A model generated the notes under the pieces. It saw only the letters and a list, made by a program, of their open reading frames with translations. It did not search any database and had not been told where the DNA came from. A DNA stretch of 58,534 nucleotides, from assembly GCA_052386995.1 (NCBI GenBank), contig JBQTJP010000213.1:1-58534 (forward strand), given 5' to 3'. The stretch's first letter is position 1, and each line of letters opens with the position of its first letter. Made by a program: the position numbers and the translations under genes. This document shows, piece after piece, positions 2,497 through 29,726 of the stretch. This DNA is from Armatimonadota bacterium (GTDB lineage Bacteria; Sysuimicrobiota; Sysuimicrobiia; Sysuimicrobiales; Humicultoraceae).

Positions 2497-4398
2497 CTAG
2501 GTGACGGCGCCTTGTCCGGTCCGGGCCGCGGTCCCAAGGATGGCTTCGGCGGCTTCAGCAATGCTCTTCGCGTCGATACCGGCTTCGGCCAGTTGCTGCT
2601 CCGGCGTTGCCGACCCCGGCATGTTCCGCACGGCCAGGCGTCGGACCGAGGGAACGATCCCAGCCCCCTCCATGCTGAGATCGGTCAGCACTTCAAGCAC
2701 CGCGTCACCGAGCCCGCCCTCGGGCCAGTGGTCTTCGGCGACGACGAGATGGCCGCCGGTGGCCCGGAACGCCTCGCGCAGCGTCTGGGCATCGATGGGC
2801 TTCACTGAGTAGGCGTCGATGACCCGAGCCGCGATCCCACGCGCGGCCAGGAGGTCGGCTGCCCGCAACGATTCAATGGTCGTGACGCCTGCGCCAACGA
2901 GGGTGACCTGATCGCGTGGCGACTGGCGAAGCACTCTGCTGCCACCGATAGGAAACCGTTCGCCCGGTTGATAGATCACCGGCGTCGCCATGCGCGTGGT
3001 GCGCAGCGAGACGATGCCGGGCCGGTCGACCATCTCCCAGACGAGCTGGGCCGTTTGGTTGGCGTCGCACGGATAGAGGACCGTCGAGCCGTGGACCGCC
3101 CGCATCATCGCCAGATCTTCCAGTCCCATCTGCGACGGTCCGTCCTCGCCGATGGAGACCCCGGCGTGCGATCCGCATATCTTGATGTTGGCGCGGGAGA
3201 TGGCGGCCATCCTGATAAAGTCGTAGGCGCGGGGGAGAAACGCCGCAAACGTCGACGCAAACGGTATGTAGTCACACACTTGAAGGCCGACGGCCGCCGC
3301 GAACATCTGCTGTTCCGCGATGTACATTTCGAAGAATCGGTCTGGATAGGCGGCAGCAAACTCTTCCGCATAGGTCGAGTTGCTCACTTCGCCGTCCAAC
3401 GCCACGACGTCGCGTCGGGCGGCGCCCAGCGCACGCAGCGCGTCGCCGTAGGCTTTGCGCGTTGCCACTTTCTCACCCACGCTGTAATGAGGCAGCTGTC
3501 CGTCACCGGCGGGAGCATCGCGCCGCTCCGGGCGGAGGTCTTCGGGCAGGGCGACGCTGACCGTGCGGTTCGGTCGCCCGCCCAGCTCGGCGATGGCCCG
3601 TTCGGATTCCTCGCGCTTCAGGGCTTTCCCGTGCCATCCGTCTTTGTTCTCGATGAAAGACACACCCTTCCCTTTGACGGTGCGGGCGATGATGGCCAGC
3701 GGCTGTCCCGAGCCGCTGCCGGACGCCGCCTCCGCGTAGGCACGGTGGACGGCCTCCACGTCATGGCCGTCGATCTCGACGGTGCGCCACCCGAAGGCCT
3801 GTGCGCGGCGCGCGTATGCTCCGGTGTTCCACCCGAGCATCGTCTCACCACGTTGACCGAACCGGTTCACGTCGAGGATGGCGATCAGGTTATCCAGGCG
3901 ATAGTGGGCGGCGTGCTCAAGCGCTTCCCAGACCGCCCCTTCTGCGGTCTCGCTGTCACCATGCAGCACGTAGATCCGGTAGGGGAGCCGGTCCAGATTC
4001 TTGCCGGCCAGCGCGATACCCACGCCGATGGCCAGGCCCTGTCCCAACGAGCCGGTGGCCGCGTCGACCCACGGAAGGACCGGCGTGGGGTGGCCCTCGA
4101 GACGGCTGCCCAACTTGCGGTAGGTCAACAGTTCCTCATCCGTGATCACTCCCGCGGCCCTGTACATCGCATAGAGCAGCGGCGATGCGTGCCCTTTGGA
4201 GAAGATGAGCCGGTCGTTGTTCGGATGGTCCGGACGCGAGAAGTCATACCGGAGGTGGCGGCTCATCAGCACCGCCATTAATTCCGCCGCGGAGAGGGAG
4301 GAGGTTGGGTGGCCCGATCCCGCCTCCGTGCTGCAGCGTATCGCGTCGACGCGGAGCTGCTGAGCGAGCTCGCGCGCCTGATCTTTCCAGTCGCTCAC
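2497..4398 (-). CDS. tkt: Transketolase (single-chain, animal/TKT-like type)
   Basis: [26 protein letters not shown], ThDP motif GDSETAEG...[13 protein letters not shown]. Confidence 0.92.
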
Positions 4399-8830: not shown

Positions 8831-8894
8831 GCAGCGGCCCGGTCATGTTGACGCAATCTTTACGAAGCGCTGATACGTTACACTAGTAGGGAAC

Positions 8895-9458
8895 ATGATG
8901 CGGCGCTGGCTGTCGTGGCACGGCTTGGTGGCCGGTCTCTCTGCCGGCGCGGCGCTGGCATTCGTCCTGGCCGCCGGATGGTTGACCGACGGTATGCCCA
9001 TCGTCGCCGCCGCGCTCTCCGAGCAGGCGCGCGCGCTGCTGCCGCTGCGAGTGCTCGGCTGGTTCATCGTCACCTTCAAGTTTGACGCGAAGCCGCTGGG
9101 GTATTGGATCACCATGGGCACGATCGTCGTGGTGTGTGCGATCGCCGGGAGCCTGTTTGGGGCACGGCGGCCGCGCCTGTGGGGAGCGGTGCTCCCGGCG
9201 GCGGGCTTCATCGCCGGCGCGCTCGCGCTGATCGCGGCACGCCCCGCGATGGGGTATCTTGCGGCGCGCCTGGGAGCCGAAGGGGTGGCCAATGCCGAGG
9301 CACAGGCCCTCACGACGGTCGCGCTGGCAATCGCGGGATATGCGGTCGTGACGGGCGGCATCTACGCGGGTGTCCTTGGCCTGCTCACGCTTGGCCGCGC
9401 CACAGCGCGCGAGGGGACCGCAGCGGCCGGCCTCGGCTATCGCGGTCGAAGTCGTTAG
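8895..9458 (+). CDS. Membrane protein, probable partner of the downstream molybdoenzyme
   Basis: About four hydrophobic segments; FKFDAK resembles the N-terminal membrane region of fused sulfite-oxidase-like proteins. Confidence 0.6.
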   Translation: MMRRWLSWHGLVAGLSAGAALAFVLAAGWLTDGMPIVAAALSEQARALLPLRVLGWFIVTFKFDAKPLGYWITMGTIVVVCAIAGSLFGARRPRLWGAVLPAAGFIAGALALIAARPAMGYLAARLGAEGVANAEAQALTTVALAIAGYAVVTGGIYAGVLGLLTLGRATAREGTAAAGLGYRGRSR

Positions 9459-9473
9459 TGGAGGTGTGAGGTC

Positions 9474-10517
9474 ATGTCGAAAATCAACCGCCGTGAGTTT
9501 CTGTCGCGGTCGATGCTCGCCGCCGGCGCGATGGCCGGTGCCGGCGCCCTGGTCCAGTGGATCAGCGCGACCGCGGCCCGCGCCGCGGTCGCCGCGCAGT
9601 CGTTGTTCGCGCGGATCAAAGGCCTGCCCCTGGAGGTCACGCCCAACGAGAAGTTCTATATCGTCAGCAAGAATCCGGCGGGGCTGGATCCCAAGGTGGA
9701 TGCCGCGAAGTGGAGCCTGGAGATCACGGGGCTTGTCGGTAAACCCATCAAGCTGACGTACGATCAGATCCGCGCGATGCCGTCGGTCACGCGCTACCAT
9801 ACGCTCGAATGCATCAGCAACGAGGTCGGCGGCGATCTCATCAGCAACGCCCTGTGGAAAGGCGTGCGGTTCCGCGACGTGATAGCGGCGGCCGGCGGGG
9901 TCAACCCGAAGGCCATCCGCTTTGCGCTGCGGGCGGCGGACGGGTACACGGAAGGCATTCCGGTCGTCGACGCGATGAACGCCGACACGATGCTGGCCTA
10001 TGAGATGAACGGCGAGCGTCTGCCGCATGGCCACGGCTTTCCGGTGCGCATGCTGACCCCCGGCCTCTTTGGCATGAAGAATCCAAAGTGGCTGACCAAG
10101 ATCGAGGCGGTCACCACCCAGTTCACCGGCTACTGGCAGGCGTCGGGCTGGAGCGATGAGGCCGTGGTCAAAACCACGTCTATCTTTCGCGTTCCCGATC
10201 AACGCACGGTGGCAATGACCCCCGCCGGCGAGGTGGAGCTCGGCGGCGTCGCGTACAGCGGTGACCGCGGCATTCAGCACGTGGAGGTCAGCCCGGACGA
10301 CGGCAAGACCTGGATGCCGGCCGAGGTGAAGCCGGCACTGAATAAATTCACCTGGGTGCTGTGGGCGTCCGTCTGGAAGCCCGCGGCACAAGGACAATAC
10401 ACGCTGAAGGTCCGGGCGCGTGACGGCACCGGACTGCTGCAAACCTCGAAGGAGGAACCCACCCTGCCCGACGGCGCAAGCGGATATCACACGATCCGTA
10501 TCAGGGTCAGGAAATAG
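9474..10517 (+). CDS. Tat-exported sulfite oxidase/MsrP-family molybdopterin oxidoreductase
   Basis: NRREFL twin-arginine signal, TPNEKFY, TLECISN Mo-Cys, HGFPVR, MKNPKWL, C-terminal dimerisation domain. Confidence 0.88.
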   Translation: MSKINRREFLSRSMLAAGAMAGAGALVQWISATAARAAVAAQSLFARIKGLPLEVTPNEKFYIVSKNPAGLDPKVDAAKWSLEITGLVGKPIKLTYDQIRAMPSVTRYHTLECISNEVGGDLISNALWKGVRFRDVIAAAGGVNPKAIRFALRAADGYTEGIPVVDAMNADTMLAYEMNGERLPHGHGFPVRMLTPGLFGMKNPKWLTKIEAVTTQFTGYWQASGWSDEAVVKTTSIFRVPDQRTVAMTPAGEVELGGVAYSGDRGIQHVEVSPDDGKTWMPAEVKPALNKFTWVLWASVWKPAAQGQYTLKVRARDGTGLLQTSKEEPTLPDGASGYHTIRIRVRK

Positions 10518-10518
10518 C

Positions 10519-10953
10519 GTGGCCGGACCGAGCCGTCTCTTTACCGTCAGCGAAGCGAACGCAACGCTCCCAGAGCTGGTGCCGCGGATCGCGCGCCTGC
10601 GGATCGTCCGCGACGAGGCGCGGCGCGTGCGCGAATTGCTCGAAGTGCTCTGGCAGCGCCTCGATGACGCCGAGCCGGTCCTCTCGACGATCGGCGAGCG
10701 GCAAGCGGCGCTGGATGCGCTCCGCGCCGACTTTGCCAGGCTCCTCGACGAGATCGACGGCTTCGGCGTGATCCTGCGTGACCTCGACCTGGGCCTGCTA
10801 GATTTTCCCGCTCGCGTCCGCGGCATGCCGATCTACCTGTGCTGGCGGGAGGGTGAAGCGCAGGTCGCCTACTGGCACGGGGTGTCCGAAGGCTTTGCCG
10901 GCCGCAGATCCATCACGATGATCCGCGATCAGTCCCATCGCACGACGAGCTGA
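10519..10953 (+). CDS. DUF2203 family protein
   Basis: FTVSEANATLP...LRDLDLGLLDFP...YLCWREGE...YWHGVSEGFAGRR. Confidence 0.8.
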   Translation: MAGPSRLFTVSEANATLPELVPRIARLRIVRDEARRVRELLEVLWQRLDDAEPVLSTIGERQAALDALRADFARLLDEIDGFGVILRDLDLGLLDFPARVRGMPIYLCWREGEAQVAYWHGVSEGFAGRRSITMIRDQSHRTTS

Positions 10954-16794: not shown

Positions 16795-16853
16795 AGCCGA
16801 CGCAAGTATCTCCCCCGTAAACTCATCATGGTTTGCCTATGAAGGAGGATGAG

Positions 16854-17414
16854 ATGGCCGTTCCGCTCCTAAGACGGCGCTTTACCGTCGACGAGTACTA
16901 CCGGATGGCGGATGCCGGGATCTTCTCCGAAGACGATCGGGTTGAGTTGATCGAAGGGGAAATCGTGGAGATGGTCCCGACCGGGAGTCAGCACGCGGGC
17001 TACGTTGGCAAGCTGAACAGGATCCTATCCAGCCGCGTCGGGGAGTCTGCATTCGTCTGGGTTCAGAATCCGGTTCGCCTGAGCGAGCATTCAGAGCCTC
17101 TGCCTGACCTCGCGTTGCTGCGTCCGCGCGCGGACTTCTATACCTCTGCGCACCCCGGTCCGGACGACATCCTGCTGCTGGTCGAGGTCGCCGAGACCTC
17201 CGCCGAGTACGACCGCGGAGTAAAAGTCTCCCTCTACTCGCGCTATGGCGCGCGTGAGTTCTGGCTGATCGATCTTCGACAAGAGGCTGTAGAGGTGTAC
17301 CGCGCCCCCGCTCCGGAAGGCTACCGTGAGATTCAGACCGTCCGCCGCGGGGGCCAACTGACGATCGAGGCGCTTCCGACGATCGGCCTTTCCGTCGACG
17401 AGATCTTCGGATAG
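16854..17414 (+). CDS. Uma2 family (DUF820) PD-(D/E)XK putative endonuclease
   Basis: FTVDEYYRM, RVELIEGEI, EPLPDLALL, LLVEVAETS, K..LY....EFWLIDL; RBS AAGGAGG. Confidence 0.88.
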   Translation: MAVPLLRRRFTVDEYYRMADAGIFSEDDRVELIEGEIVEMVPTGSQHAGYVGKLNRILSSRVGESAFVWVQNPVRLSEHSEPLPDLALLRPRADFYTSAHPGPDDILLLVEVAETSAEYDRGVKVSLYSRYGAREFWLIDLRQEAVEVYRAPAPEGYREIQTVRRGGQLTIEALPTIGLSVDEIFG

Positions 17415-17440
17415 AGTCCCCATCGCGGCCGGTCCGCGTC

Positions 17441-18110
17441 ATGTCGAGATCAGCGTACGATCCAACACTTTACGAAGGAGCCGCCCGGGACTACGCACGC
17501 TATCGGCTCCCATACCCCAGGTCGCTCTTCGAGCATCTTGTGAGCTGTTTCCGGCTGGACGGCACCGGCCGCGCCCTGGACCTGGGGTGTGGCACCGGGC
17601 AACTGGCGATTCCCCTTGCTCCGTACTTCGAGCAGGTCGTGGCGATGGACCCTGACCGTGGGATGCTGGACGAAGCGCGCCGGGCGGCCGAGGCGGCCGG
17701 CGTGGCGAACGTGCGCTTCGTGCAGGGGTCGTCGTGGGAACTCGCGCCAGCGATGGGCCAGTTCCGGCTCGTCACCATGGCGATTCGTTCCATTGGATGG
17801 ATCGGGACAGCGCCCGACGCGCCGGGCCGGTCAGGGCTTCTATATGCACCCGGATGAGACGCACGAGGCGGTGCTCCGGCGTTCCCACTTCACGGTGATG
17901 CTTAACTGGATTTACGAATACAACCGGAATCAGACCATCGATGAGGTCATCGGCTTTCTTTACTCGACGTCGTTCGCGTCTCGCCGGCTCCTCGGCGAGC
18001 GGGCTGAGGAATTTGCGCGAGAACTGCGGCGGCGGCTGCTTGACCTGGAGCAATCGGGAACCTTTAGCGAACGAATCGTCGTGACAGCCCTGTTGACTGC
18101 GAGGGCCTGA
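17441..18110 (+). pseudogene. Class I SAM-dependent methyltransferase, frameshifted and internally deleted
   Basis: LDLGCGTG motif in the 17441 frame; GDSFHWMDR only in a shifted frame at about 17780; C-terminal RRAG..Y...HE.VL / YSTSF part in a third frame. Confidence 0.8.
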
Positions 18111-18120
18111 GGGCAGCGGT

Positions 18121-19329
18121 TCAGCCCGAAGCGGACCTCACGCCCGACCCGCTTTGCGGGTGCCGCGCTGTCAGCCGTGCGGCCTCAGTGCGCGCCCATC
18201 TGTCCGCTTCCAGAATCTCATCGAGGCCCGGCCGTTGGATAGCCGTGTGGGCGTCCATCACCTTCCGGACGAGCCACGGGATCTCCAAAAAGCCGATCGA
18301 GCCGGCCAGGAACCGTTCCACGGCGATCTCATCGGCGGCGTTGAGCACGGCGCACATCGTGCCGCCCGCCGCCGCGGCCTCCCTCGCCAGGCCCAGGCTG
18401 GGAAAACGGTCCTGATCAGGCGCCTCAAAGGTCAGCGGCGAGAGCCGATCCGACCACGCCGGACCGCGACCCGGCGCCCCTGTAAGGAAGTCCGCCGGCT
18501 GCCGATGAGGATAGTGAAGCGCGTAGTGGATGACCAGGCGCATATCGGGAGGTGCCACCAGCGTCTTCATCGTTCCGTCCACGAACTCCACAAAGGCATG
18601 GACCACGGCCTGCGGATGGACCAGCACATCCACTGCGCCTGGCGGCATGCGGAACAGATGCGCCGCCTCGATGATCTCCAGACCCTTGTTCATCATCGTG
18701 GCCGAGTCGATCGTCACCCGCGGCCCCATGCGCCAGACCGGATGCGCCAGCGCTTCCTGCGGAGTCACGCGCGCCAGCTCTTGAAACGAGCGGTGCAGGA
18801 AGGGACCGCCCGACGCCGTGAGGATCAGCCGCCGGACCGTGCCGGGATCCTCGCCGGCGAGGCACTGAAAGATAGCGTTGTGCTCGCTGTCCAGCGGGAT
18901 CAGGCTCGCTCCTCCTGCCGCGACCGCGGCCATCACCAGATCGCCGCCCGCGACGAGCACTTCTTTGGTCGCGAGCCCGATCCGCTTGCCCGCGCGCGCT
19001 GCCGCCAGCGTGGGCAGGAGGCCCGCGATCCCGACCACGGCCATGACGACGACGTCAACACCGGCCAGAGTCGCGACGTCTTCGAGACTCGACGCGCCGC
19101 CGGCGACCGTAACGCCCTTGGGAACCGCCGCTCTCACCGCCGAGACAGCGCCTTCGTCGCCGACGGCGACGAAGCGCGGAGAGAACCGCTTGACCTGCTC
19201 GACGAGCAGATCGATGTTGCGGCCCGCGGCGAGTCCTTCGACGCGCAGCCGGTCTGGCACGGCGGCGATGACCTCTAGCGTGGAGCGACCGATCGAGCCC
19301 GTCGATCCCAGGATGGCGACGTTACGCAT
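18121..19329 (-). CDS. dxr: 1-deoxy-D-xylulose-5-phosphate reductoisomerase
   Basis: ILGSTGSIG, LATKE, PLDSEH, LTASGGPF, HPVWRMG, TIDSATMMNKGLE. Confidence 0.95.
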   Translation of the reverse strand: MRNVAILGSTGSIGRSTLEVIAAVPDRLRVEGLAAGRNIDLLVEQVKRFSPRFVAVGDEGAVSAVRAAVPKGVTVAGGASSLEDVATLAGVDVVVMAVVGIAGLLPTLAAARAGKRIGLATKEVLVAGGDLVMAAVAAGGASLIPLDSEHNAIFQCLAGEDPGTVRRLILTASGGPFLHRSFQELARVTPQEALAHPVWRMGPRVTIDSATMMNKGLEIIEAAHLFRMPPGAVDVLVHPQAVVHAFVEFVDGTMKTLVAPPDMRLVIHYALHYPHRQPADFLTGAPGRGPAWSDRLSPLTFEAPDQDRFPSLGLAREAAAAGGTMCAVLNAADEIAVERFLAGSIGFLEIPWLVRKVMDAHTAIQRPGLDEILEADRWARTEAARLTARHPQSGSGVRSASG

Positions 19330-19861
19330 TCCGCCTGCCTCTGGTCTTTCTGACCACCGACCTGGTGGCCCGGGTCGCACGGCGGCTCGCGCTGGGTGTC
19401 AGCAGGACCACGGCGTACGCCGCGATGCCTTCCCCGCGGCCCAGCGCATCGAGCCCTTCATGCGTGGTGGCCTTGATACTGATTCGCCTGGAGTCCGCCC
19501 CGAGGATGCCGCCGATCGTCTCGCGCATCGCGGGCACGTGCGGTGCCAGCTTCGGCGCGGCCGCGACCATCGTGGCATCCAGGTTGCCGAGACGAAAGCC
19601 TCGCCTTCTCATTATCTTCGCCACCGCTTCGAGGAGGCGCGTGCTGGCGATGTTCTCGTAGCGTGGGTCGCTGGTGGGGAAGTGGTGGCCGATATCGCCC
19701 TCGCCCAGCGCTCCCAGCACCGCGTCGGCAATGGCGTGGAGGAGCACGTCCGCGTCGGAATGACCCTCGAGACCGTGTGTGAAGGGAATGTCGACTCCGC
19801 CCAGCACGAGCCGTCTTGCCGCCGTCAGCCTGTGAATGTCAAATCCGATGCCGACCCGCAT
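19322..19861 (-). CDS. ispF: 2-C-methyl-D-erythritol 2,4-cyclodiphosphate synthase
   Basis: GIGFDIH, GHSDADVLLHA, DIGHHFP, KATTHE. Confidence 0.95.
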   Translation of the reverse strand: MRVGIGFDIHRLTAARRLVLGGVDIPFTHGLEGHSDADVLLHAIADAVLGALGEGDIGHHFPTSDPRYENIASTRLLEAVAKIMRRRGFRLGNLDATMVAAAPKLAPHVPAMRETIGGILGADSRRISIKATTHEGLDALGRGEGIAAYAVVLLTPSASRRATRATRSVVRKTRGRRNA

Positions 19862-20549
19862 CGGCGGCCATTCTCCCGGCTAGGATGGCTTCGGCCAGCG
19901 CCAGGTCGCCCGCGGTCGAGATTTTCAGGTTGTCGATCTGGCCTTCCACCGCTCGCACCTGACCGCCGAGCCGCTCGACCAGCATGGCATCATCGGTGCC
20001 GACCACCCCGGCCGCCCTGGCCTGCTCATGCGCGCTGCGGAGGAGCGCGTACCGAAACGCCTGAGGAGTCTGAACCGTCCACAGCGGAGCCCGATCCACC
20101 GTGCGGACGACAACCCCTTCTCGTACGATCTTCACAGTCTCCTGGACCTTGGTCGCCAGCGTGGCCGCTCCGGTATCCCGCGCGGCGGTCACCGCCGCCG
20201 TAATGCTTTCGGGATGCACGAGCGGGCGCACCCCATCGTGGACCACCACGATCTCCACCCCGGCGAGAGTGAGGAGCCCATTGTAGACGGAATCCTGCCG
20301 GACCTCGCCTCCGGGGATGACCGCGGTGACCTTCCTCAACGAGTAGTCGGCGACGAGCCGCGCGACCCTGTCGATCTCCTGCTCGCGCACGACCAGGCAG
20401 ACCTCCTCGATGACCGGGCAGCGCTCGAACGCTCCCAGAGTCCACACGAGGACCGGCTTCCCTGCGATTGGCACGAACTGTTTGGGATGCTGCGTGCCCA
20501 TCCGGGCTCCGAGCCCCGCAGCAGCCACGATCGCACCGACATTAGGCAC
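19839..20549 (-). CDS. ispD: 2-C-methyl-D-erythritol 4-phosphate cytidylyltransferase
   Basis: AAAGLGARM...PKQF, RQDSV, HDGVRP, QTPQAF, TDDA. Confidence 0.95.
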   Translation of the reverse strand: MPNVGAIVAAAGLGARMGTQHPKQFVPIAGKPVLVWTLGAFERCPVIEEVCLVVREQEIDRVARLVADYSLRKVTAVIPGGEVRQDSVYNGLLTLAGVEIVVVHDGVRPLVHPESITAAVTAARDTGAATLATKVQETVKIVREGVVVRTVDRAPLWTVQTPQAFRYALLRSAHEQARAAGVVGTDDAMLVERLGGQVRAVEGQIDNLKISTAGDLALAEAILAGRMAADAGRHRI

Positions 20550-20643
20550 AGTGGATTCTCCTGCGCGTCAACGGCCGTCCGTTGTCATGGTGGATTTCTT
20601 ACCGCGGCGAATTCCGCCACCCGGTGCGCACGTCCGGCATATC

Positions 20644-21660
20644 TTACCGCGCCTGACGCGCGACCTCCTTCTCGGCCTTCTCCATGATCGTGGAGGAATG
20701 ACCGGGGAAGACCGACGCCTCGGGGTTGATGTACCGCGCCGCATTGTTGACGGCCGTGGCGGCTTCGCCGAAGCCGGTCGCAATGAGCTTGAGCTTGCCG
20801 GGGAAGGTGACGATATCGCCGGCCGCATACACGCCGGGCAGATTCGTCTCCATGCGCGTATTGACGACGATGGAATCCTCTTCGAGGACGAGCCCCCAGG
20901 TCGAGATCGGTCCCAGATTGCTCACGAGGCCCAGGAACGCGAGGACCGCGTCGACCTTCAAAACTTCCTCCTGGCCGGTCTTGTTCTGAAAGACGACCGC
21001 CTCGGTGATGTCGGGGTCGCCGCGCAGCACACGGAGCTCGTAGAACACTTTGACCGTGATCGGCGAGTCCAGCAGCTTCTTGACGCTGTCCGCGTGCGCG
21101 CGGAACCCATCGCGCCGGTGGACCAGCGTGATATGGCGCGCGTAGGGCAGCAGGTTGAGCGCCCAGTCGAGCGCGCTGTCCCCACCGCCGACGACGAGGA
21201 CGTCCTTCCCGCGGAAGTCCTCTTTACGCTGTACCGCGTAGTGAAGTCCGTGCCCGATGTAGCGATCGAATTCGGGCCGCTTGTACGTCTTGGGGGTGAA
21301 GGCGCCGATCCCACCGGTGATCAGGACGACCCGGGTCAGATGTTCGCCCTCGTTGCCGCCCAACGTAATGCGGTGGTCTTGCCCATGCTCCAGCGTGCGG
21401 ATGGCTTCGTTGAGATGGATGGCGGGTTTGTACTGCATGGTCTGCTCGACGAGGTTGGTGACCAGGTCCTTGCCGAGGATCTTGGGGAATCCGGCCACGT
21501 CGTAGATGAACTTGTCCGGATAGAGTGCGGTCACCTGTCCGCCCAGGTCGGGCTGGCTGTCGACGATTTTCGTGCGCAGGCCTCGGAAGCCGGCATAATA
21601 CGCGCCAAACAGACCCGCGGGTCCGGCGCCGATGATCGTGATGTCGTAGAGATCGTCCAC
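20644..21660 (-). CDS. Ferredoxin-NADP+ reductase (TrxB-like, YumC type)
   Basis: GAGPAGLF, LYPDKFIYDVAGF, GGGDSALD, HRR..FRAH, KLIATGFGE, C-terminal PGHSS; no CxxC; GTG start after GGGAGG. Confidence 0.85.
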   Translation of the reverse strand: MDDLYDITIIGAGPAGLFGAYYAGFRGLRTKIVDSQPDLGGQVTALYPDKFIYDVAGFPKILGKDLVTNLVEQTMQYKPAIHLNEAIRTLEHGQDHRITLGGNEGEHLTRVVLITGGIGAFTPKTYKRPEFDRYIGHGLHYAVQRKEDFRGKDVLVVGGGDSALDWALNLLPYARHITLVHRRDGFRAHADSVKKLLDSPITVKVFYELRVLRGDPDITEAVVFQNKTGQEEVLKVDAVLAFLGLVSNLGPISTWGLVLEEDSIVVNTRMETNLPGVYAAGDIVTFPGKLKLIATGFGEAATAVNNAARYINPEASVFPGHSSTIMEKAEKEVARQAR

Positions 21661-21706
21661 CCGTCCTCCCGGGAGCCGCACCGCTTCCAAGCCGCACGGC
21701 GCAGCC

Positions 21707-21715
21707 ATTGTAGCA
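21707..21715 (-). promoter_or_regulatory. Putative extended -10 promoter (TGCTACAAT) for the FNR-ispD-ispF-dxr operon
   Basis: Reverse complement of attgtagca, about 45 nt upstream of the GTG. Confidence 0.45.
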
Positions 21716-21832
21716 TGTACCCATTTCTTGACACTACTACCGGTCCCGTGTCACAGTGTGAAGAATACGATTGTCACGATTGTCAGGAATAGGATTTTGA
21801 CGCGGACCGTCTATGAAGACAGGGGGAGAGGC

Positions 21833-23017
<1,185 letters not shown>

Positions 23018-23018
23018 C

Positions 23019-23037
23019 CGCGGGGCGAAGCCCCGCG
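23019..23037 (+). terminator. GC-rich hairpin after moeB (no U-tract)
   Basis: cgcggggc-gaa-gccccgcg directly after the stop codon. Confidence 0.4.
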
Positions 23038-23055
23038 CGATAATCTCACCCCGCG

Positions 23056-24090
23056 ATGCGTCAGGCAATCCTGCGGGCTCCGCGCACCCTCGACCTGGTC
23101 GATCTCCCTACGCCCGAGCCCCGAGCCGGAGAGGTCGTCGTCCGAATTCTCGCCGCCCTGACCTGCGGCACGGATCTGAAAACGTACAGAAGGGGCCACG
23201 CACGCCTGCGCTTCGGACCGTTCGGGCACGAGGCGGCGGGCGAGATTGCGGCCCTGGGAGACGGCGTCGGCGGGTTCGCCGCGGGGCAGCCGGTCGTCTT
23301 CACGCCGACCGCCGCCTGCGGGGAGTGCGGGCCGTGCCGCCGGGGCAAAGACAATCTCTGCACCACGCTGTTCGACGAGATGGCCATCGGCGCGTACGGC
23401 GACATGATGCGCGTGCCGGCCCGGATTGTGCGCCGGCACCTGTTCCCCAAGCCGCCGGGCCTGTCGTACGTCGAAGCGGCGTTCCTCGAACCCCTCGCCT
23501 GCGTCGTCCACGCGTGGCGGCGGTTGGGCGGGGTCAACGGCGATCGCGTGGCGGTGATCGGGGTCGGCGCGATTGGGCTGCTGCACGTGCAGGAGGCGAC
23601 CCGGCGCGGTCTCGAGGTCATCGCGGTGGGCCGCCGCCCGGACGGTCTGGGACTCGCCGCGCGCCTCGGCGCCCGTCACGTCGTCAACATTCGTGAGACC
23701 GAGCCGGGAGAGGCGCTGCGGGCCCTCACCGGGGAGGGACCCGAGATCGTCGTCGAGTGTACGGGCTCGGAAGACGTCTGGCAGGCCGCGCCGGCGTGGG
23801 CGGCTCCCGGCGGCAGCGTGTTGCTCTTCGGCGGCCTGGCGGCCGGCAGCCAGCCACAGTTCGATGCCACCCGACTGCACTATGCAGAGGTGGATCTCGT
23901 GAGCGCCTTTCACTATCGTACCGCCGACGTCCGCGATGCGTTGACGCTGCTGGCTTCGGGCGCGATTCGGCCCGCCGCGCTGATCACCGGCCTGCGGCCG
24001 CTAGACGACATCAAAGCAGTGTTCGACGAGCTCGACCGGGGCGCCGGCATCAAGTACGCTATCCTCCCGGATGGTGGCACATGGCGGTAG
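23056..24090 (+). CDS. Zn-dependent MDR polyol dehydrogenase, predicted NADP(H)-type
   Basis: CGTD, GHE, CxxCxxCx7C, EPLAC, GVGAIG; GRR at the end of beta-B with no Asp. Confidence 0.85.
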   Translation: MRQAILRAPRTLDLVDLPTPEPRAGEVVVRILAALTCGTDLKTYRRGHARLRFGPFGHEAAGEIAALGDGVGGFAAGQPVVFTPTAACGECGPCRRGKDNLCTTLFDEMAIGAYGDMMRVPARIVRRHLFPKPPGLSYVEAAFLEPLACVVHAWRRLGGVNGDRVAVIGVGAIGLLHVQEATRRGLEVIAVGRRPDGLGLAARLGARHVVNIRETEPGEALRALTGEGPEIVVECTGSEDVWQAAPAWAAPGGSVLLFGGLAAGSQPQFDATRLHYAEVDLVSAFHYRTADVRDALTLLASGAIRPAALITGLRPLDDIKAVFDELDRGAGIKYAILPDGGTWR

Positions 24091-25133
24091 CGCGGCCCGC
24101 GACGACGCGCGCCGTGGTCTTTCGCGCGCCCGACGATCTTCGGCTGGAAGAGCTCCCGCTGCCGCCGCTGCGGGACGGCGAGATGCTCCTGCGCATCACC
24201 GCCTGCGGCCTGTGTCCCGGAGAGGTCATGGACTGGTATATGGCGCGAAAGGCGCCCGTGCCGCTGGGGCACGAGCCCGTGGGCGAAGTTGTCGAGGTTG
24301 GCCCCGGAGCCCCATACCGCACCGGCGAGCGCGTGTTCGTGCACCATCACGCCCCGTGTCTGGCCTGCCGGGCGTGCGCGAGGGGCGACTACGTGCACTG
24401 TGTGACGTGGGGGCCGCGGCGCCTGATTCCCGGGGGTCTCGCAACCTATGCCGTGGCCGCCGGACCGGCTCCCGCGACCGATACCCTGCGCCTGCCGCCG
24501 GGCCTTTCAGATGAGGTCGCCACGTTCATCGAGCCGGTGGCGTGTGTGATCAAGTCGGTGCGGCGGGCGCGCATCCGGCCGGGTGATCGTGTCTTGGTCA
24601 TAGGACTGGGAGTCATGGGGCTGCTGCATCTGCTCGTGCTCCGGCGTGTGGCAGCGTCCCTGCAGTTGATTGCGGCCGACCGGGTGGCCGAGCGCGTGAC
24701 GTTTGCGCAGACCGCCGCTGGCGGGTTCGCCGATACCGTCATCGATACTACAAAGACGCCGCTGGTCGAGGCGGTAGCTCAGGCCACCGGCGGCGAAGGC
24801 GCAGATGTCGTTGTGGTCGGTCCGGGAACCGTCGACGCCCTGGAGGCGGGACGCCTCGCCGTGGCGCCGGGCGGCACGCTCGTGGTGTTCACGCCGACGC
24901 CACCGGACGCGATCTGGCCGCTACCAGCGCACGACCTGTTCTTCAGGGAAACGACGATCGTCCCGAGTTACTCATCCGGCCCCGACGATACACGGGAGGC
25001 CTTGAGGCTTCTCGTGGAAGGATTGCCGGTGGGGACGCTCATCACACACCGGCTGTCCCTCGAGGACGCTGCGTCCGGTTACGCGCTCGTGCGCGCGGCC
25101 GGCCCGGCCCTCAAGGTCGTGGTGCGTCCGTAA
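24081..25133 (+). CDS. Zn-dependent MDR polyol dehydrogenase, predicted NAD(H)-type
   Basis: CPGEVMDWY, GHE, HHHAPCLACRAC...C, EPVAC, GLGVMG; AADR with Asp. Confidence 0.85.
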   Translation: MAVARPATTRAVVFRAPDDLRLEELPLPPLRDGEMLLRITACGLCPGEVMDWYMARKAPVPLGHEPVGEVVEVGPGAPYRTGERVFVHHHAPCLACRACARGDYVHCVTWGPRRLIPGGLATYAVAAGPAPATDTLRLPPGLSDEVATFIEPVACVIKSVRRARIRPGDRVLVIGLGVMGLLHLLVLRRVAASLQLIAADRVAERVTFAQTAAGGFADTVIDTTKTPLVEAVAQATGGEGADVVVVGPGTVDALEAGRLAVAPGGTLVVFTPTPPDAIWPLPAHDLFFRETTIVPSYSSGPDDTREALRLLVEGLPVGTLITHRLSLEDAASGYALVRAAGPALKVVVRP

Positions 25134-25527
25134 GCGCCTGCAGTTTCGCCAGCCACTCCTTCGACGGGATTACGCAGAGAAACCCGAAGGGCTCGTCACT
25201 CACACTTTCAAACTGATGCTGTTCGTTCTGGGGGATATAGATGGCGTCTCCCGGTCCGACCTCGTGCATCTCCCATCCGAGGAGAACCCTGGCCCGGCCT
25301 TTGAGGATCACCACGCCCTGGTCGTGGAGGTGGTCTTCAAATGACGATTGACCTCGCGGAGGAATCTCGAAGTAGCGGATGGCGAAGTGCTGTGCCCCCT
25401 CCTGCGGACCGATCAGCACCGCCCGGCAACTGCCTTCGCTCACGCCGCCTCCGCGATAGGGCTCGACCGGGATGCCTTCCCAGAGGAGGTTCCCGTCCTT
25501 GCCGATCTGTTTGTGAACGACGCCCAT
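25111..25527 (-). CDS. Cupin (TM1459 / R. rubrum methylsulfurylase-like family)
   Basis: WEG..V..Y, R.VLIG, RYFEIPP.G.S..EDHLH, PGD.IYIP...HQF, EPFGFLC. Confidence 0.8.
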   Translation of the reverse strand: MGVVHKQIGKDGNLLWEGIPVEPYRGGGVSEGSCRAVLIGPQEGAQHFAIRYFEIPPRGQSSFEDHLHDQGVVILKGRARVLLGWEMHEVGPGDAIYIPQNEQHQFESVSDEPFGFLCVIPSKEWLAKLQALTDAPRP

Positions 25528-25540
25528 GCCCTCGTGATCC

Positions 25541-26584
25541 TCACATGAAGTTGGGAACGGCCCCGCCATGCAGGTTGGAGATGCGCTCGGCGCCCTCCCG
25601 ATCGAACCCCACCTGAAGCAGACGCCTGACCCGGGTCGCGTGCATCTCACGATAGAGATCTTTGATACGTTCGCGGCCGTGCGCAAGTTGCTCTGGTGAC
25701 GAGCCGCCGCCGGCGAGCACGGCGAGCGCCTGTTGTACGAAGGGGCTCGCCCCCGCCGCCTGGCGAAGGAATGCAGCCCTGGCCTCGGCCGCCTGATGCA
25801 GTTTCGTCAGCAGATCGGGGTCGTGCTTCAAATGGTAGGCGATGTGCGAGACTCCATAGCCGACGTGCCGCCCTTCATCCTGCCGGGCCATCCTGAAGAT
25901 TGTGGCGGTGACGGGATCCGGTGAGACATCCTCGAGGAACTTGAGGAGCTCCATGAACGTGCCTTCCCCCAGGATGTGGAGCAGGAACGAGGCGCCCGTG
26001 AAATCCTCCTGCTCAAGCAGGCTCTTGAGGGACCACTCCGTGGCGGCCGACACATACTGGAGCCCGCCGCCGTTGGCCAGCGCCCGCTTCGTGAAGACCT
26101 CCACGTGGCGGGCTTCATCCTCCACCTGGCTGGCCAGAAAGAGCACCACCTCGGTGAAGCGGGGGTCGACCCGGCCCAGGAGTTTGGCCGGAAGGTAGAG
26201 GGCCAGATACTCGTTCTGAATCATGAACGTGCAAATCTGGCAGACGGCCTGCTCCAGGTCGCCGGGCAGCGGTTTCAGGTCCCGCCAGGGGATGTCGGTC
26301 GACGCGTTCCACTGTCCAAGCTTGGCCTGTTCGACCAGGTCGGCGATGTTGTCGGCCCAGACTTCGACCTTCTTGTTGACGGGAAAGTCAAATGGCGGAG
26401 TAGCGGGGTCGATGACCGACCCCCGCTGCGCCAGACCCCAGCGGGCCGGTACCTCCTCAGGGATCAATCCGGCCTGACCGATGAAGCAGTCTCTGAGGTC
26501 AACGCCGGAACCATCGCGCGGCGGAACCCGGATACCCCAGTCGGGCTTCCCCCAGGCCGAAGTATCCGGCAGTTTGATCTCCAT
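25541..26584 (-). CDS. Ferritin-like diiron-carboxylate protein of unknown function
   Basis: QNE, DEARH, GEGTF, DEGRH diiron ligand pattern; C-terminal NFM; RBS GGGAGG. Confidence 0.75.
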   Translation of the reverse strand: MEIKLPDTSAWGKPDWGIRVPPRDGSGVDLRDCFIGQAGLIPEEVPARWGLAQRGSVIDPATPPFDFPVNKKVEVWADNIADLVEQAKLGQWNASTDIPWRDLKPLPGDLEQAVCQICTFMIQNEYLALYLPAKLLGRVDPRFTEVVLFLASQVEDEARHVEVFTKRALANGGGLQYVSAATEWSLKSLLEQEDFTGASFLLHILGEGTFMELLKFLEDVSPDPVTATIFRMARQDEGRHVGYGVSHIAYHLKHDPDLLTKLHQAAEARAAFLRQAAGASPFVQQALAVLAGGGSSPEQLAHGRERIKDLYREMHATRVRRLLQVGFDREGAERISNLHGGAVPNFM

Positions 26585-26758: not shown

Positions 26759-27763
26759 GTGAGGCTTGCGACGAGGATACTGCGGCTCTGCTTGGTGGGG
26801 TTCCTGGCGGCGCTCTTCGCGCTGCCGGGCTCCAGCGTTGCCCAGACCCGCGCCGGATGGCCGCGATCGGTCACCATCGGGTCGGCGTCGATCGGCGGTG
26901 TGTACTTCGTCGTCGCCGGTGGCTGGGCGAGGGTGATCGGAGAGAAGATGAGCCTGTCGGCCACGAACCGGGTCACGGGCGGCCCCGTTCAGAACGTCCA
27001 GTTGGTCCAGACCAAGGAGATCGAGCTCGGCATGACGACCACCGGTCCACTCCACGAGGGCCTGCTTGGCATCGGCGACTTCAAGGGCAAGAAGATGGAC
27101 GCCGTCCGCGTGGCGTTCCCGATGTACACGTCTTTCGGCCACTGGATGGTCAGCGCGGACTCACCCATTCGCTCGGTGGCCGATCTTGGGGGCCGGGTCG
27201 TCAGCCTTGGCCCGCGGGGCAGCTCCGGCGAGTTCGTCGGCGAGCGCGTCTTCGAGATCTTCAACGTCAAGCCACGTCGCGTTGTCTTTCTGGGCTTTGC
27301 CGATGGCGCATCCGCCATTCGCGACGGCGCCGTGGACGCGAACTTCGGCGTCATCGGCCTCCCGGTCCCCGCATGGGTGGAAGCTTCGGTCACCAGGCCC
27401 GCCCGGTTCTTCGGGTTCACGCGCGACCAGATCGAGACGCTGGCCGAGCGGTTCCCCTACCTGGCGCGCGCCGCCATCCGATCCGGGGTCTACCGAGGCC
27501 AGGACGCGGTGATTCCGACTATCCAGATGTGGAACACCGCGATCGTTCACAAAGACATGCCGGAAGACTTCGTCTACCAGCTCGTGAAGACGATGATGGA
27601 CAACCGCGACTTTCTGGCGACGGTGCACCCCACGGCGAACGAGCAGTTGCCGGTCAACACCTTCTACATCAAGATGCCAATGCATCCGGGGGCCGTGCGC
27701 TACTTCCGCGAGCAGGGGGTCAAGCTGGCCGACGAGCACATCCCGCCAGAAATGAAGCGGTAG
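26759..27763 (+). CDS. TAXI family TRAP transporter solute-binding protein
   Basis: Signal peptide, IGSASIGGVY, TGGPVQN, GPRGS, MHPGAVRYF. Confidence 0.9.
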   Translation: MRLATRILRLCLVGFLAALFALPGSSVAQTRAGWPRSVTIGSASIGGVYFVVAGGWARVIGEKMSLSATNRVTGGPVQNVQLVQTKEIELGMTTTGPLHEGLLGIGDFKGKKMDAVRVAFPMYTSFGHWMVSADSPIRSVADLGGRVVSLGPRGSSGEFVGERVFEIFNVKPRRVVFLGFADGASAIRDGAVDANFGVIGLPVPAWVEASVTRPARFFGFTRDQIETLAERFPYLARAAIRSGVYRGQDAVIPTIQMWNTAIVHKDMPEDFVYQLVKTMMDNRDFLATVHPTANEQLPVNTFYIKMPMHPGAVRYFREQGVKLADEHIPPEMKR

Positions 27764-27788
27764 TGCAGCGCAGGCACTTCGCGGTCCC

Positions 27789-29726
27789 GTGAGCGGCGAG
27801 ACGACCGGCCTCCCGGTCGACACCTCGCAGCTCGGCGACGCCTCTGAGATCAGCACACGAACACTATATGGCTCGCTGCGGGCGCTGGTGCAGGCCGTTG
27901 CGGCTGCAATGGCCATCTACCATATCCTGCAGCTGGGGCGATTCTTCGGCGTCGTCACCGATCCGCAAAAGGTCTACGCGATGCACGTCATGTTCGTGAC
28001 CGTGCTGGCCTTCTTGCTCATCCCCGGCCGCCGGGGCGAAGCGCGCCCGACACTTCTGGACTGGCTGCTGGTGCTCGCGTCGATCGTTGTCGTCGCCTAT
28101 GTCTTCATCACGTTCGAGGAATTGACCGGGCGAGCGGGGGTCTTCCCAACTCGCGAAGACGTCATCTTCGGCATCCTGCTCGTAATCGTGACGATCGAGT
28201 CGTCACGCCGGGCGACGGGTCTCTCACTACCGATCCTGTGCGCGCTCTTTGCGATCTATCCGTTTATCGGCCCGTACCTGCCCGGCCTGCTATCCCACAA
28301 GGGGTTTTCGTTTGGCACGGTCATCTCGTTTCTGTTCAGCGATAATGCGATCTATGGTGTGCCGATCCAGGTCTCGGCGCGCGACGTCTACCTGTTTATC
28401 CTGTTCGGCGCGTTCCTCGAAGCCTCCAATATCGGAAAGTTCATTGTCGACGCCGCGCTCGGCGTAGCGGGGACCCTGCGCGGCGGCCCGGCCAAGGTGT
28501 CAATCCTGACCAGCGCGCTGTTCGGCACGGTGAGCGGGTCCTCGGCGGCCAATGTCATGGTGGACGGGGTCATCAACATCCCCTTGATGAAGGCCACCGG
28601 TTTCCGTGCGACCGTTGCCGGTGGCATTGAGGCCATGAACAGCACTGGGGGACAGATCGTGCCGCCGGTCATGGGCGCGGCCGCGTTCCTGATGGCCGAC
28701 ATCCTCGGCGTGCCGTACTCCAAGATCGCGGTGGCCGCAATCGGACCCGCGCTGTTGTACTACGTCGCTGCGTACTGGATGATCGACCTGTATTCGGCCT
28801 CGAAGGGCCTGCACGGGCTGCCGCGCAAGGACCTGCCGCGTTTCGACGAGGTGATGCGGCAGCACGGCTACATGTTTCTCCCCCTCGTTGTCCTCCTGTA
28901 CATGGTCATGGCGCTGGGCGCTTCGCCGTTCCGGGCCGCCCTGTACGCGCTGGCCACCACCATCATCGTTTCGCTGTTCCGGGCCGATACCCGCCTCACA
29001 CTCCGTAAAATCGTCGGCGCGATGGAGGAAGGGGCAAAGCGCACGATCGAGATCGGCGTCTCCTGTGCGGCCGCCGGCATCATCGTCGGCATCCTGTCGC
29101 TGACGGGCCTGGGCGGGAAGTTCTCCGAGGTGCTGATCGATCTGGCGGGCGGGAGTCTGATCCTGGCACTGATCGGTACGATGATCGCCGCCATCGTCTT
29201 GGGCACCGGGCTCCCGACGACCGCCGCCTACGCCATCGGCGCCAGCGTGCTGGCCCCGGCGCTCATCAAGCTCGGCACCCCGCCGCTGGCCGCGCACATG
29301 TTCCTGTTCTACTTCTCGGTGATCTCTGCGGTGACGCCGCCGGTGGCTTTTGCCTCGTTCGCGGCGGCCAGTATCGCCAGGGCCCCGATGTGGGAGACCT
29401 CCATCGAGTCGATGCGCTTTGGCATCGCCGGCTATGTGGTGCCGTTCATGTTCGCGTACGGATCGGCCCTGCTGGTGGGCCAAAGCCCATGGCCGGAAAC
29501 CGCGCTCGCGCTGGCGACAGGGACGGTCGGCACGCTGTGCCTGGCCGCTGCGGTCGTCGGGTACCTGGCCCGGCCGGCGACGTTGGCGGAGCGGGTCTTG
29601 CTGGCGGCGGCATCGATCCTGCTCATCACGCCGGGACTCCTCACGGATCTGATCGGCCTCGCGCTGCTGGCGCTTGTATTCGGCCTTCAGCGTCTGTGGC
29701 GTCCGGCGGCGCCCGCGCCCGCGTAA
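27789..29726 (+). CDS. TRAP transporter fused 4TM/12TM permease
   Basis: GGPAK, GTVSGSSAANV, STGGQIVPPVMGAAAF, GLPTTAAY, VTPPVA. Confidence 0.92.
   Translation: MSGETTGLPVDTSQLGDASEISTRTLYGSLRALVQAVAAAMAIYHILQLGRFFGVVTDPQKVYAMHVMFVTVLAFLLIPGRRGEARPTLLDWLLVLASIVVVAYVFITFEELTGRAGVFPTREDVIFGILLVIVTIESSRRATGLSLPILCALFAIYPFIGPYLPGLLSHKGFSFGTVISFLFSDNAIYGVPIQVSARDVYLFILFGAFLEASNIGKFIVDAALGVAGTLRGGPAKVSILTSALFGTVSGSSAANVMVDGVINIPLMKATGFRATVAGGIEAMNSTGGQIVPPVMGAAAFLMADILGVPYSKIAVAAIGPALLYYVAAYWMIDLYSASKGLHGLPRKDLPRFDEVMRQHGYMFLPLVVLLYMVMALGASPFRAALYALATTIIVSLFRADTRLTLRKIVGAMEEGAKRTIEIGVSCAAAGIIVGILSLTGLGGKFSEVLIDLAGGSLILALIGTMIAAIVLGTGLPTTAAYAIGASVLAPALIKLGTPPLAAHMFLFYFSVISAVTPPVAFASFAAASIARAPMWETSIESMRFGIAGYVVPFMFAYGSALLVGQSPWPETALALATGTVGTLCLAAAVVGYLARPATLAERVLLAAASILLITPGLLTDLIGLALLALVFGLQRLWRPAAPAPA

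Follow-up and report, generated by a model that had tools for sequence, protein, structure and literature searches.

A Conserved Dehydrogenase Pair and a Methylsulfurylase-Like Cupin as a Candidate Dxs-Independent Source of 1-Deoxy-D-Xylulose-5-Phosphate

Results

Gene Content of the Locus

The window analyzed here is the whole 58,534-nucleotide stretch of contig JBQTJP010000213.1, which belongs to a 3.47-Mb metagenome-assembled genome (MAG), 93% complete, of the phylum Sysuimicrobiota (CSP1-3), hereafter G000. Its genes were called from Pfam and NCBIfam profile matches and open reading frames (ORFs). We focused on two Zn-dependent medium-chain dehydrogenases/reductases (MDRs) and on the cupins that accompany them, as a candidate source of DXP (1-deoxy-D-xylulose-5-phosphate) for the methylerythritol phosphate (MEP) pathway. 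MDR1 (23056-24090, plus strand) and its paralogue MDR2 (24081-25133, plus strand, 350 aa) both matched Pfam ADH_N and ADH_zinc_N, and the ATG of MDR2 at 24081 precedes the stop codon of MDR1, giving a 10-nt overlap. The cupin P0003 (25111-25527, minus strand, 138 aa; Pfam Cupin_2, PF07883) is convergent with MDR2, and their 3′ ends overlap by 23 nt; the ATG at 25527, rather than 25686, is probably where it starts. A gap of 13 nt separates P0003 from the upstream gene of a ferritin-like diiron protein (25541-26584, minus strand, 347 aa), recognized in the sequence by two ExxH motifs. Because it lies so close downstream of this gene, P0003 is co-operonic with the diiron gene and not with the MDR genes.

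On the other side, 2.5 kb from the MDR pair, lie ispD (19839-20549, minus strand; Pfam IspD, 219 bits), ispF (19322-19861, minus strand; Pfam YgbB, 213 bits) and dxr (18121-19380, minus strand). The dxr product showed all three DXR Pfam domains and matched TIGR00243 over the cut-off (408.5 bits, match at 18175-19329). A Dxr fusion, suspected from open frames of about 650 aa, was rejected, as the extension was a chance open frame over an upstream gene in another frame. The two coupled dehydrogenases and their convergence on a cupin beside MEP genes, which a preliminary description of this DNA had reported, were thus confirmed by the domains, the zinc ligands given below and the gene layout.

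The Two Dehydrogenases Carry Opposite Cofactor Motifs

Both proteins contain a GroES-like catalytic domain and a Rossmann domain (PF08240 and PF00107), and MDR2 is 32% identical to MDR1. The zinc ligands of MDR1 are found in CGTD, GHE and the structural four-Cys loop CGECGPCRRGKDNLC, those of MDR2 in CGLC, GHE and the structural four-Cys loop CLACRACARGDYVHC. Catalytic and structural ligands were kept in the orthologues in both alignments. Where the second Rossmann strand ends, MDR1 reads VIAVGRRPDG, with no Asp (NADP-type), and MDR2 reads LIAADRV, with Asp (NAD-type). This position was compared in 26 MDR1 rows and 21 MDR2 rows from several phyla, the window included. All 26 MDR1 rows showed G or A followed by R, K or H and never an acidic residue, and all 21 MDR2 rows showed D or E. 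The split into an NADP-type and an NAD-type fingerprint, first read from the window, therefore holds in every row, as expected of a reductase/dehydrogenase pair that pushes a net isomerization one way. Moreover, a basic stretch adjoining the catalytic cysteine of MDR1, CGTDLKTYRRGHP, was conserved across phyla, and WY-x-x-(R/K)K was kept in MDR2; judged from sequence, the two are possible phosphate-binding sites.

The MDR1-MDR2-Cupin Triad Is Conserved

Gene order was compared in 20 neighborhoods from genomes of the window's order (relatives' loci), in the 80 best MDR1 loci on genome contigs (44-89% identity) and in 80 metagenome loci of the cupin. MDR1 and MDR2 were adjacent in 20/20 relatives' loci, where the cupin followed MDR2 co-directionally in 15, was convergent in 2 and had no copy nearby in 3. 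Of the genome-contig loci, 38 were co-directional MDR1-MDR2-cupin triads; the MDR pair came with a convergent cupin in 4 and with none in 5, MDR1 had no adjacent MDR2 in 22, and 11 were cut by contig ends. Co-directional triads came from Sysuimicrobiota, Limnochordales and other Bacillota MAGs, Eremiobacterota/Vulcanimicrobiota, Binatus, Desulfuromonadales and one Cytophagia-labeled MAG, and their genes often overlapped by 4 nt in several phyla. Among the metagenome loci, MDR2 lay directly upstream of the cupin in 47, and was convergent with it in 9; 3 had only an MDR1-like gene nearby, 11 had no MDR, and the flanks of 10 were too short. The cupin thus had an MDR partner in 59 of the 70 metagenome loci with usable flanks. 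These counts bear out the proposed association of such dehydrogenase pairs with this cupin family and indicate that the conserved unit is the MDR1-MDR2-cupin triad. In Fimbriimonadales (5/5 genomes), MDR2 and the operon-type cupin (about 51% identity each) were kept far from MDR1, and the small genomes of this group hold the three genes as single dispersed copies. A separate layout was seen in metagenome loci L225-L230, L244 and L218, where an MDR2-like gene has a cupin on either side (cupin -> <- MDR2 <- cupin), MDR1 is missing and 2-oxoacid dehydrogenase E1/E2 genes adjoin.

The neighborhood of the MEP genes was not shared. In 0/20 relatives' loci did dxr, ispD or ispF lie near the MDR pair; there, lipA is directly followed by a thioredoxin-reductase-like (TrxR-like) gene, and dxr occupies its usual cdsA-dxr-rseP context. 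The link to ispD-ispF-dxr that the preliminary description had drawn from proximity is therefore local to this genome, carries no weight and was rejected as evidence. Between lipA and dxr, the window also holds a nuclease gene of the Uma2 family and a methyltransferase fragment of 138 aa (16833-17857, plus strand), at a place where the relatives have no gene. With dxr-ispF-ispD they fill the interval 16833-20549 between lipA and the TrxR-like gene, which suggests a rearrangement or insertion local to this genome.

The Operon Cupin Is Close to a Known Methylsulfurylase

The operon cupin, represented by that of locus L090, matched Rru_A2000 (PDB 3jzv, titled 'uncharacterized protein') with 99.8 bits (E 1.4e-27) in an alignment that takes in the C-terminal GFLC-x-V-x-A-x-RD-x-P motif, and no sugar isomerase reached E 1e-5 in this PDB search. 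Rru_A2000 is the methylsulfurylase of Rhodospirillum rubrum acting on 1-methylthio-D-xylulose-5-phosphate (PMC4334135); its Rhodopseudomonas palustris counterpart RPA2170 adjoins the RuBisCO-like isomerase RPA2169 (PMC5893883). Three operon cupins were tested against NCBIfam and matched no model, and P0003 gave a weak match below the cut-off.

P0003, the cupin of the window, matched 3jzv with 64 bits (E 1.3e-16) and is about 40% identical to the operon cupins. It shares with them the motifs RYFE, ExHxH, HQF and PFGFLC, which are invariant in alignment A1, as are H90, H92 and H128. P0003 thus belongs to the Rru_A2000 family as a divergent paralogue, coupled to the diiron protein. An operon-type cupin was not found elsewhere in G000. 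A P0003-type cupin (81% identity) with MDR1 and MDR2 at 70-72% identity was also found on a 6.6-kb contig of family f4 (G027:C224, locus L047). The other three genomes of this family have no MDR1 orthologue, and the short contig may be mis-binned.

dxs Is Absent From the Host Genome and From Most Carriers

dxs was searched with model TIGR00204, which finds the gene in 10 of 14 control genomes. No match over the cut-off was found in the window or in the whole of the 93%-complete G000, and tblastn of G000 with a real Dxs (from G065) returned a transketolase alone, at 24.5% identity. The absence first noticed in the window thus extends to the genome. The transketolase gene (2497-4398, minus strand, 633 aa) gave the only full-length match of the dxs-model type in G000, scoring 967 bits for NF004559, 238 for the classical model of bacterial Tkt and 169 for that of dxs. 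A hidden Dxs was judged unlikely, given the normal NF004559 score and the 169 bits to dxs. Some genomes of family f1 showed split transketolase-like forms with an internal stop. Of the MEP genes, dxr, ispD, ispF, ispG and ispH were found in G000. Although not in the window, mtnA (431.6 bits) and mtnP (294.7 bits) were present in the genome. No RuBisCO-like protein (RLP) was found in G000 (no PF00016 match). The genome searches for dxs, mtnA and RLP, which bear on the refuting conditions set in the preliminary description, thus did not overturn its proposal.

The survey was extended to 76 genomes (G000-G075), 41 from the window's order and 35 others bearing MDR1 homologues. dxs over the cut-off was found in 0/41 genomes of the order and in 4/35 of the others, these four being among the most distant homologues (44-47% identity); the counts include G001, G010 and G057, flagged as unpublished, and are 0/39 and 4/34 without them, so that none of the conclusions depends on these three. 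No dxs was thus present in 72/76 genomes, one of which, G041, is recorded as a complete genome. Moreover, in ten genomes from four families of the order (f3-f6), no dxs-model match was better than E 1e-25. dxr was found in 71/76 genomes (69 over the cut-off) and mtnA in 70 (68 over the cut-off). The RuBisCO/RLP family was present in 7 and absent from 69. HMG-CoA reductase was found in 9 and was absent from 67, G000 included, so the mevalonate pathway was rejected as the isoprenoid source. MDR1 orthologues were present in 34/41 genomes of the order. In a quick maximum-likelihood tree (IQ-TREE), MDR1 and MDR2 separated with full support. The core MDR1 clade (32 rows from Sysuimicrobiota, Limnochordales/Bacillota, Fimbriimonadales and Eremiobacterota) came only from dxs-less genomes, and the remaining clades were mixed.

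Two samples not chosen by MDR1 were also compared. Among 121 genomes of the phylum of G041, an MDR1-like match was found in 7/7 dxs-less genomes (204-362 bits) versus 25/114 (22%) dxs-positive genomes. Among 101 genomes of the phylum of G048, nine were dxs-less, and three of these had a strong MDR1 match (G048, G049 and G274). Five had neither MDR1 nor dxr, and therefore probably either have no MEP pathway or are incomplete genomes.

A Candidate Route to DXP

Gene order, coupling, cofactor motifs, cupin homology and genomic distribution, as observed above, come together as follows. The operon joins two dehydrogenases to a cupin related to a DXP-releasing enzyme, and its carriers keep MtnP, MtnA and DXR but have no RLP and usually no Dxs. 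On these grounds, the MDR1-MDR2-cupin module may be an RLP-free shunt from 5′-methylthioadenosine (MTA) or 5′-deoxyadenosine to DXP, a reading to which we give about even chances. MtnP and MtnA, encoded elsewhere in the genome, would convert MTA or 5′-deoxyadenosine to 5-methylthio- or 5-deoxy-D-ribulose-1-phosphate. MDR1, as the NADPH-type enzyme, would reduce the C2 ketone to the D-arabitol configuration. MDR2, as the NAD+-type enzyme, would oxidize C4, yielding 1-methylthio-D-xylulose-5-phosphate, or DXP directly from the 5-deoxy substrate. The Rru_A2000-family cupin would remove the methylthio group with a thiol, and the DXP released would pass through DXR into the MEP pathway. Numbered from the other end, the product of the two dehydrogenases would be a D-xylulose-5-phosphate substituted at C1; with H as the substituent this is DXP, and with SCH3 it is the substrate of the methylsulfurylase. 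The net isomerization is the one that the RLP carries out in R. rubrum. We infer here the substrates, the order of the steps, the stereochemistry and DXP as the product; by our own reasoning from sugar stereochemistry, the redox-isomerase chemistry is sound on paper.

How much DXP the module would supply is a further matter. We only tentatively suggest that carriers without dxs, G000 among them, could have it as their main source of DXP. It is also possible, though less likely than not, that it would be a natural Dxs-independent entry to the MEP pathway and the main or only DXP source in whole lineages, namely much of Sysuimicrobiota, Eremiobacterota, a Fimbriimonadales clade and Limnochordales. 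For G000 itself, the cupin step is doubtful; only the 5-deoxy branch could run with no cupin, and that of the methylthio substrate is uncertain.

Distribution and Neighborhood Data That Weigh Against the Route

Several observations speak against the proposed shunt. Seven genomes of the same order (G026, G028, G030, G032, G035, G038 and G039) are dxs-less, encode dxr and mtnA, and have no MDR1 orthologue, their best MDR1 match being at most 141 bits or none at E 1e-30. G028 is 100% complete, and dxr, ispD and ispF were found in it. In the 73% of this genome that was read, no MDR1, MDR2 or operon cupin was present, and the sole cupin seen was a distant one of 122 aa beside unrelated genes. Another DXP source must therefore exist in these seven genomes, and by parsimony it could serve the whole order. 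The triad or a close MDR1 homologue coexists with dxs in at least 10 genomes. These include the MDR1 bearers G062, G063, G065 and G068, and, from the phylum of G048, G202, G253 and G294 (about 2.8 Mb, 73-74% G+C), with MDR1 at 56-57% identity. The triad is full in G202 and G294, and G253 shows only a partial, weak match (36%) at the MDR2 position, so that its triad may be broken. Five full, more divergent triads were also found in dxs-positive genomes of G041's phylum, within the 20 top-scoring loci that follow G041's own. This coexistence indicates that the module is not simply a replacement of Dxs. The anti-correlation with dxs and RLP that the preliminary description wished to see checked is present in the carriers surveyed (72/76 and 69/76 genomes, respectively); for dxs it is not strict, as the triad occurs together with dxs in other genomes. 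Moreover, G245 (1.6 Mb), also of the phylum of G048, has dxr, no dxs and no MDR1 match, and the counts overstate the number of independent events, because many of the genomes are related.

The neighborhoods and the window cupin add to these points. mtnA, mtnP and the class II aldolases of the genome were found in 0/100 neighborhood loci, so no linkage of the pair to mtnA or mtnP was seen, and outside the phylum no other neighbor family occurred in more than 9/127 loci. In P0003, the C-terminus reads VIPSKEWL where the operon cupins have VDAxRDRPRP, and the C-terminal motif common to these and Rru_A2000 is absent. The description of the window cupin as methylsulfurylase-like is thus right as to family (64 bits to Rru_A2000) and needs qualifying in that P0003 is divergent, lacks the C-terminal motif and sits in a diiron-cupin operon. 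Finally, by our own reasoning, drawing all DXP from by-products of S-adenosylmethionine (SAM) is stoichiometrically demanding. The interpretation in the preliminary description is, on balance, supported in part.

The same data would fit a different enzyme as the source of DXP in all these dxs-less lineages, the module being an accessory salvage or detoxification system for the sugars of MTA and 5′-deoxyadenosine that is tied to the loss of dxs only indirectly, or yielding a product other than DXP. The seven genomes without MDR1, the lack of all three genes in the part of G028 that was read and the carriers with dxs all point this way, and the near-universal mtnA of the carriers fits any MtnA-dependent salvage. 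We nevertheless consider this explanation unlikely. Only one enzyme is known to release DXP, and the operon cupin closely resembles it; the MDR1-like gene marked every dxs-less genome of the first unselected sample and only 22% of the dxs-positive ones. No alternative candidate was seen: the sole transketolase-like gene of G000 scores as a normal transketolase, and the ten f3-f6 genomes gave no better dxs-model match than stated above. Whatever the part of the module, at least one further DXP source must exist in Sysuimicrobiota, because 0/41 genomes of the order have dxs, dxr is kept and seven have no MDR1.

Relatives of the Dehydrogenases and Polyol Catabolism

The substrate specificity of the MDRs is unreadable from sequence, and the nearest solved relatives use unphosphorylated polyols or threonine, which also counts against the shunt. 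No curated NCBIfam enzyme model reached its cut-off for MDR1 or MDR2. The best was IolM (scyllo-inosose 3-dehydrogenase), with 117.6 for MDR1 and 113 for MDR2 versus a cut-off of 450, followed by the models of L-threonine 3-dehydrogenase (TDH; about 110 versus 458) and galactitol-1-phosphate 5-dehydrogenase (GatD; 85 and 66 versus 550); the L-idonate 5-dehydrogenase model was not reached either. The nearest PDB relatives were sorbitol dehydrogenase, ketose reductase and TDH at about 1e-32, with xylitol dehydrogenase also among the nearest.

Such relatives would suit ordinary polyol or sugar catabolism, in which two sorbitol/xylitol-type dehydrogenases act with a cupin sugar isomerase and the overlap with dxs absence is a phylogenetic coincidence. 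Cupins do include sugar-phosphate isomerases (weak matches), and both the window and L132 have a TRAP transporter next to the locus. However, no kinase, regulator or transporter was consistently linked to the pair, in line with the ceiling of 9/127 loci for any neighbor family, and the small Fimbriimonadales genomes keep the three genes even as dispersed single copies. The cupin matched Rru_A2000 far better than any sugar isomerase, and dxs absence was strongly enriched among the carriers. A catabolic role is therefore clearly improbable in our view.

The Diiron Protein and the Tail of a DHAP-Type Shunt

The diiron protein gave weak matches to the R2-like ligand-binding oxidase and AurF; in the ESM Atlas, its first match reached 0.97, and the cluster agreed with AurF on 50% of members. 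The layout of the window, a diiron-cupin pair convergent on MDR2-MDR1, recurs in L064, L077, L253 and L257. L052 and L054 have such a diiron-cupin pair at a distance of 7 kb from a full triad, and the cupin of the pair is 62% identical to the operon cupin there. This recurrence would be accounted for if the genes formed the tail of a shunt of the dihydroxyacetone phosphate (DHAP) type, with the MDRs interconverting (methylthio)acetaldehyde or acetaldehyde and the corresponding alcohols, and the diiron protein and cupin cleaving 2-(methylthio)ethanol to methanethiol. G000 has mtnP, mtnA and class II aldolase-family genes, and the R. palustris study leaves both the alcohol dehydrogenase and the aerobic methanethiol-releasing step without an assigned enzyme (PMC5893883). 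Still, the best aldolase candidate (G000:C252), below every NCBIfam cut-off and within an ABC-transporter operon, could not be assigned to MtnB or Ald2. The reduction of one aldehyde needs no two dehydrogenases of opposite cofactor type, most triads have no diiron gene, and the absence of dxs would be left unexplained. Taken together, this alternative is very improbable.

MDR1 Homologues in Hopanoid Clusters

In four Binataceae/'delta-proteobacterial' MAGs (L134, L136, L139 and L143), an MDR1 homologue (45-47% identity) was found inside a hopanoid cluster of the order hpnH, farnesyl diphosphate synthase, MDR1, shc (squalene-hopene cyclase), dxr, hpnD, hpnE and hpnA. It lies near 10001-11050 in L134, L139 and L143 and at 2888-3913 in L136. 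This position, amid isoprenoid genes and close to dxr, was counted in favor of the shunt. All four genomes are without dxs, and none (0/4) holds the operon cupin, which is a further point against the three-gene shunt. The context would allow a role of the MDR1 family in hopanoid or other isoprenoid tailoring, for example in reducing ribosylhopane to bacteriohopanetetrol, rather than in precursor supply; we know of no enzyme identified as the reductase for that conversion. This context was seen in only 4/80 loci, and the core MDR1 clade goes with MDR2 and the cupin rather than with hopanoid genes, so that tailoring as the function of the family is very unlikely.

Other Neighboring Genes

The gene directly before MDR1 in the window encodes a ThiF and rhodanese adenylyltransferase/sulfurtransferase of the MoeZ/MoeB-like type (21728-23017, plus strand; Pfam and NCBIfam). 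In Sysuimicrobiota it is the opening gene of a MoeZ-MDR1-MDR2 operon. It starts 20 nt from the divergent gene of the TrxR-like flavoprotein (20644-21708, minus strand), which matched Pfam Pyr_redox_2 and, below the cut-off, TIGR01292 (161 bits), and behind which ispD-ispF-dxr come in the window. MoeZ stood directly before MDR1 in 17/20 relatives' loci, which was not so in other phyla, and the TrxR-like gene was divergent from it in 12/20. As a speculation, the two proteins might supply or recycle the thiol for the cupin step, the role of glutathione in R. rubrum. In five Eremiobacterota-type loci, L115, L120, L123 and L263 among them, the cupin is followed by a MetE-like gene. Its product (372 aa; 12507-13625 in L120) has only the catalytic domain of the cobalamin-independent methionine synthase (PF01717), which hints at a link to methionine regeneration and was counted in favor of the shunt.

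Just past the diiron gene, the window encodes a TRAP solute receptor of the TAXI type together with a fused permease of the TRAP system (26759-29726, plus strand); a TRAP pair near the triad was also present in L132. A 647-aa ORF in high-G+C DNA (8883-10826, minus strand) had no NCBIfam match at E 1e-10.

Discussion

The lack of Dxs in numerous bacteria has been described in print as an open problem (PMC10663253; PMC11730185). The first of these, a survey of 2023, counted 181 of about 4,400 complete bacterial genomes with all MEP genes but dxs, and for 172 of them it says that the mechanism needs further investigation (PMC10663253). Our literature search, limited in coverage, found no description of a dehydrogenase-based DXP route, and the main texts of the two Sysuimicrobiota papers made no mention of isoprenoids, the MEP pathway or dxs. 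A three-gene candidate with a clear chemical hypothesis makes the question of DXP in dxs-less bacteria testable at the bench. If the shunt proposed here is true, it would be a second natural way to the methylsulfurylase substrate and would link the supply of isoprenoids to the turnover of SAM in several phyla of which little is known. If it were also the main or only DXP source of the lineages named above, isoprenoid and thiamine synthesis, and possibly that of pyridoxal 5′-phosphate, would draw on the ribose from SAM turnover and not on pyruvate and glyceraldehyde-3-phosphate. The shunt would also make a Dxs-free DXP route available for pathway engineering, and annotation pipelines that call the MEP pathway 'incomplete' in these phyla would be overlooking a step.

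The logic of the proposed module has precedents in polyol redox-isomerase pairs. Fungal xylose reductase and xylitol dehydrogenase, an NADPH-dependent reductase and an NAD-dependent dehydrogenase, isomerize a sugar through its polyol, and D-arabitol-phosphate dehydrogenase belongs to the MDR family. The likeness lies in the order of NADPH reduction and NAD+ oxidation and in the use of zinc-binding MDR enzymes; the difference is that the substrates proposed here would be 5-deoxy- or 5-methylthio-pentulose phosphates.

The closest known system in terms of product is the MTA-isoprenoid shunt of R. rubrum and R. palustris, composed of MtnP, MtnA, the DeepYkr RLP and the cupin Rru_A2000/RPA2170. 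G000 likewise has MtnP and MtnA, the cupins are of the same family, closely so for the operon type and more distantly for that of the window, and the proposed product is again DXP. In contrast, neither G000 nor 69/76 of the carriers has an RLP, and two MDRs stand in the operon instead. As the RLP is the isomerase of 5-methylthio-D-ribulose-1-phosphate (MTRu-1-P 1,3-isomerase), its absence places the module outside the canonical shunt. Moreover, dxs is absent here, whereas R. rubrum has Rru_A2619 (PMC4334135). The DHAP shunt (MtnP or MtnK, MtnA and Ald2) shares the entry steps and the substrates 5′-deoxyadenosine and MTA (PMC5893883), but it ends in DHAP and an aldehyde, not in DXP, and no clear Ald2 was found in G000. 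Formation of DXP without Dxs has also been obtained in Escherichia coli by laboratory bypasses (aceE and ribB suppressors, YajO; PMC3424233, PMC10663253), which rely on mutant or over-expressed enzymes and other precursors, whereas the candidate described here is a natural, conserved gene set.

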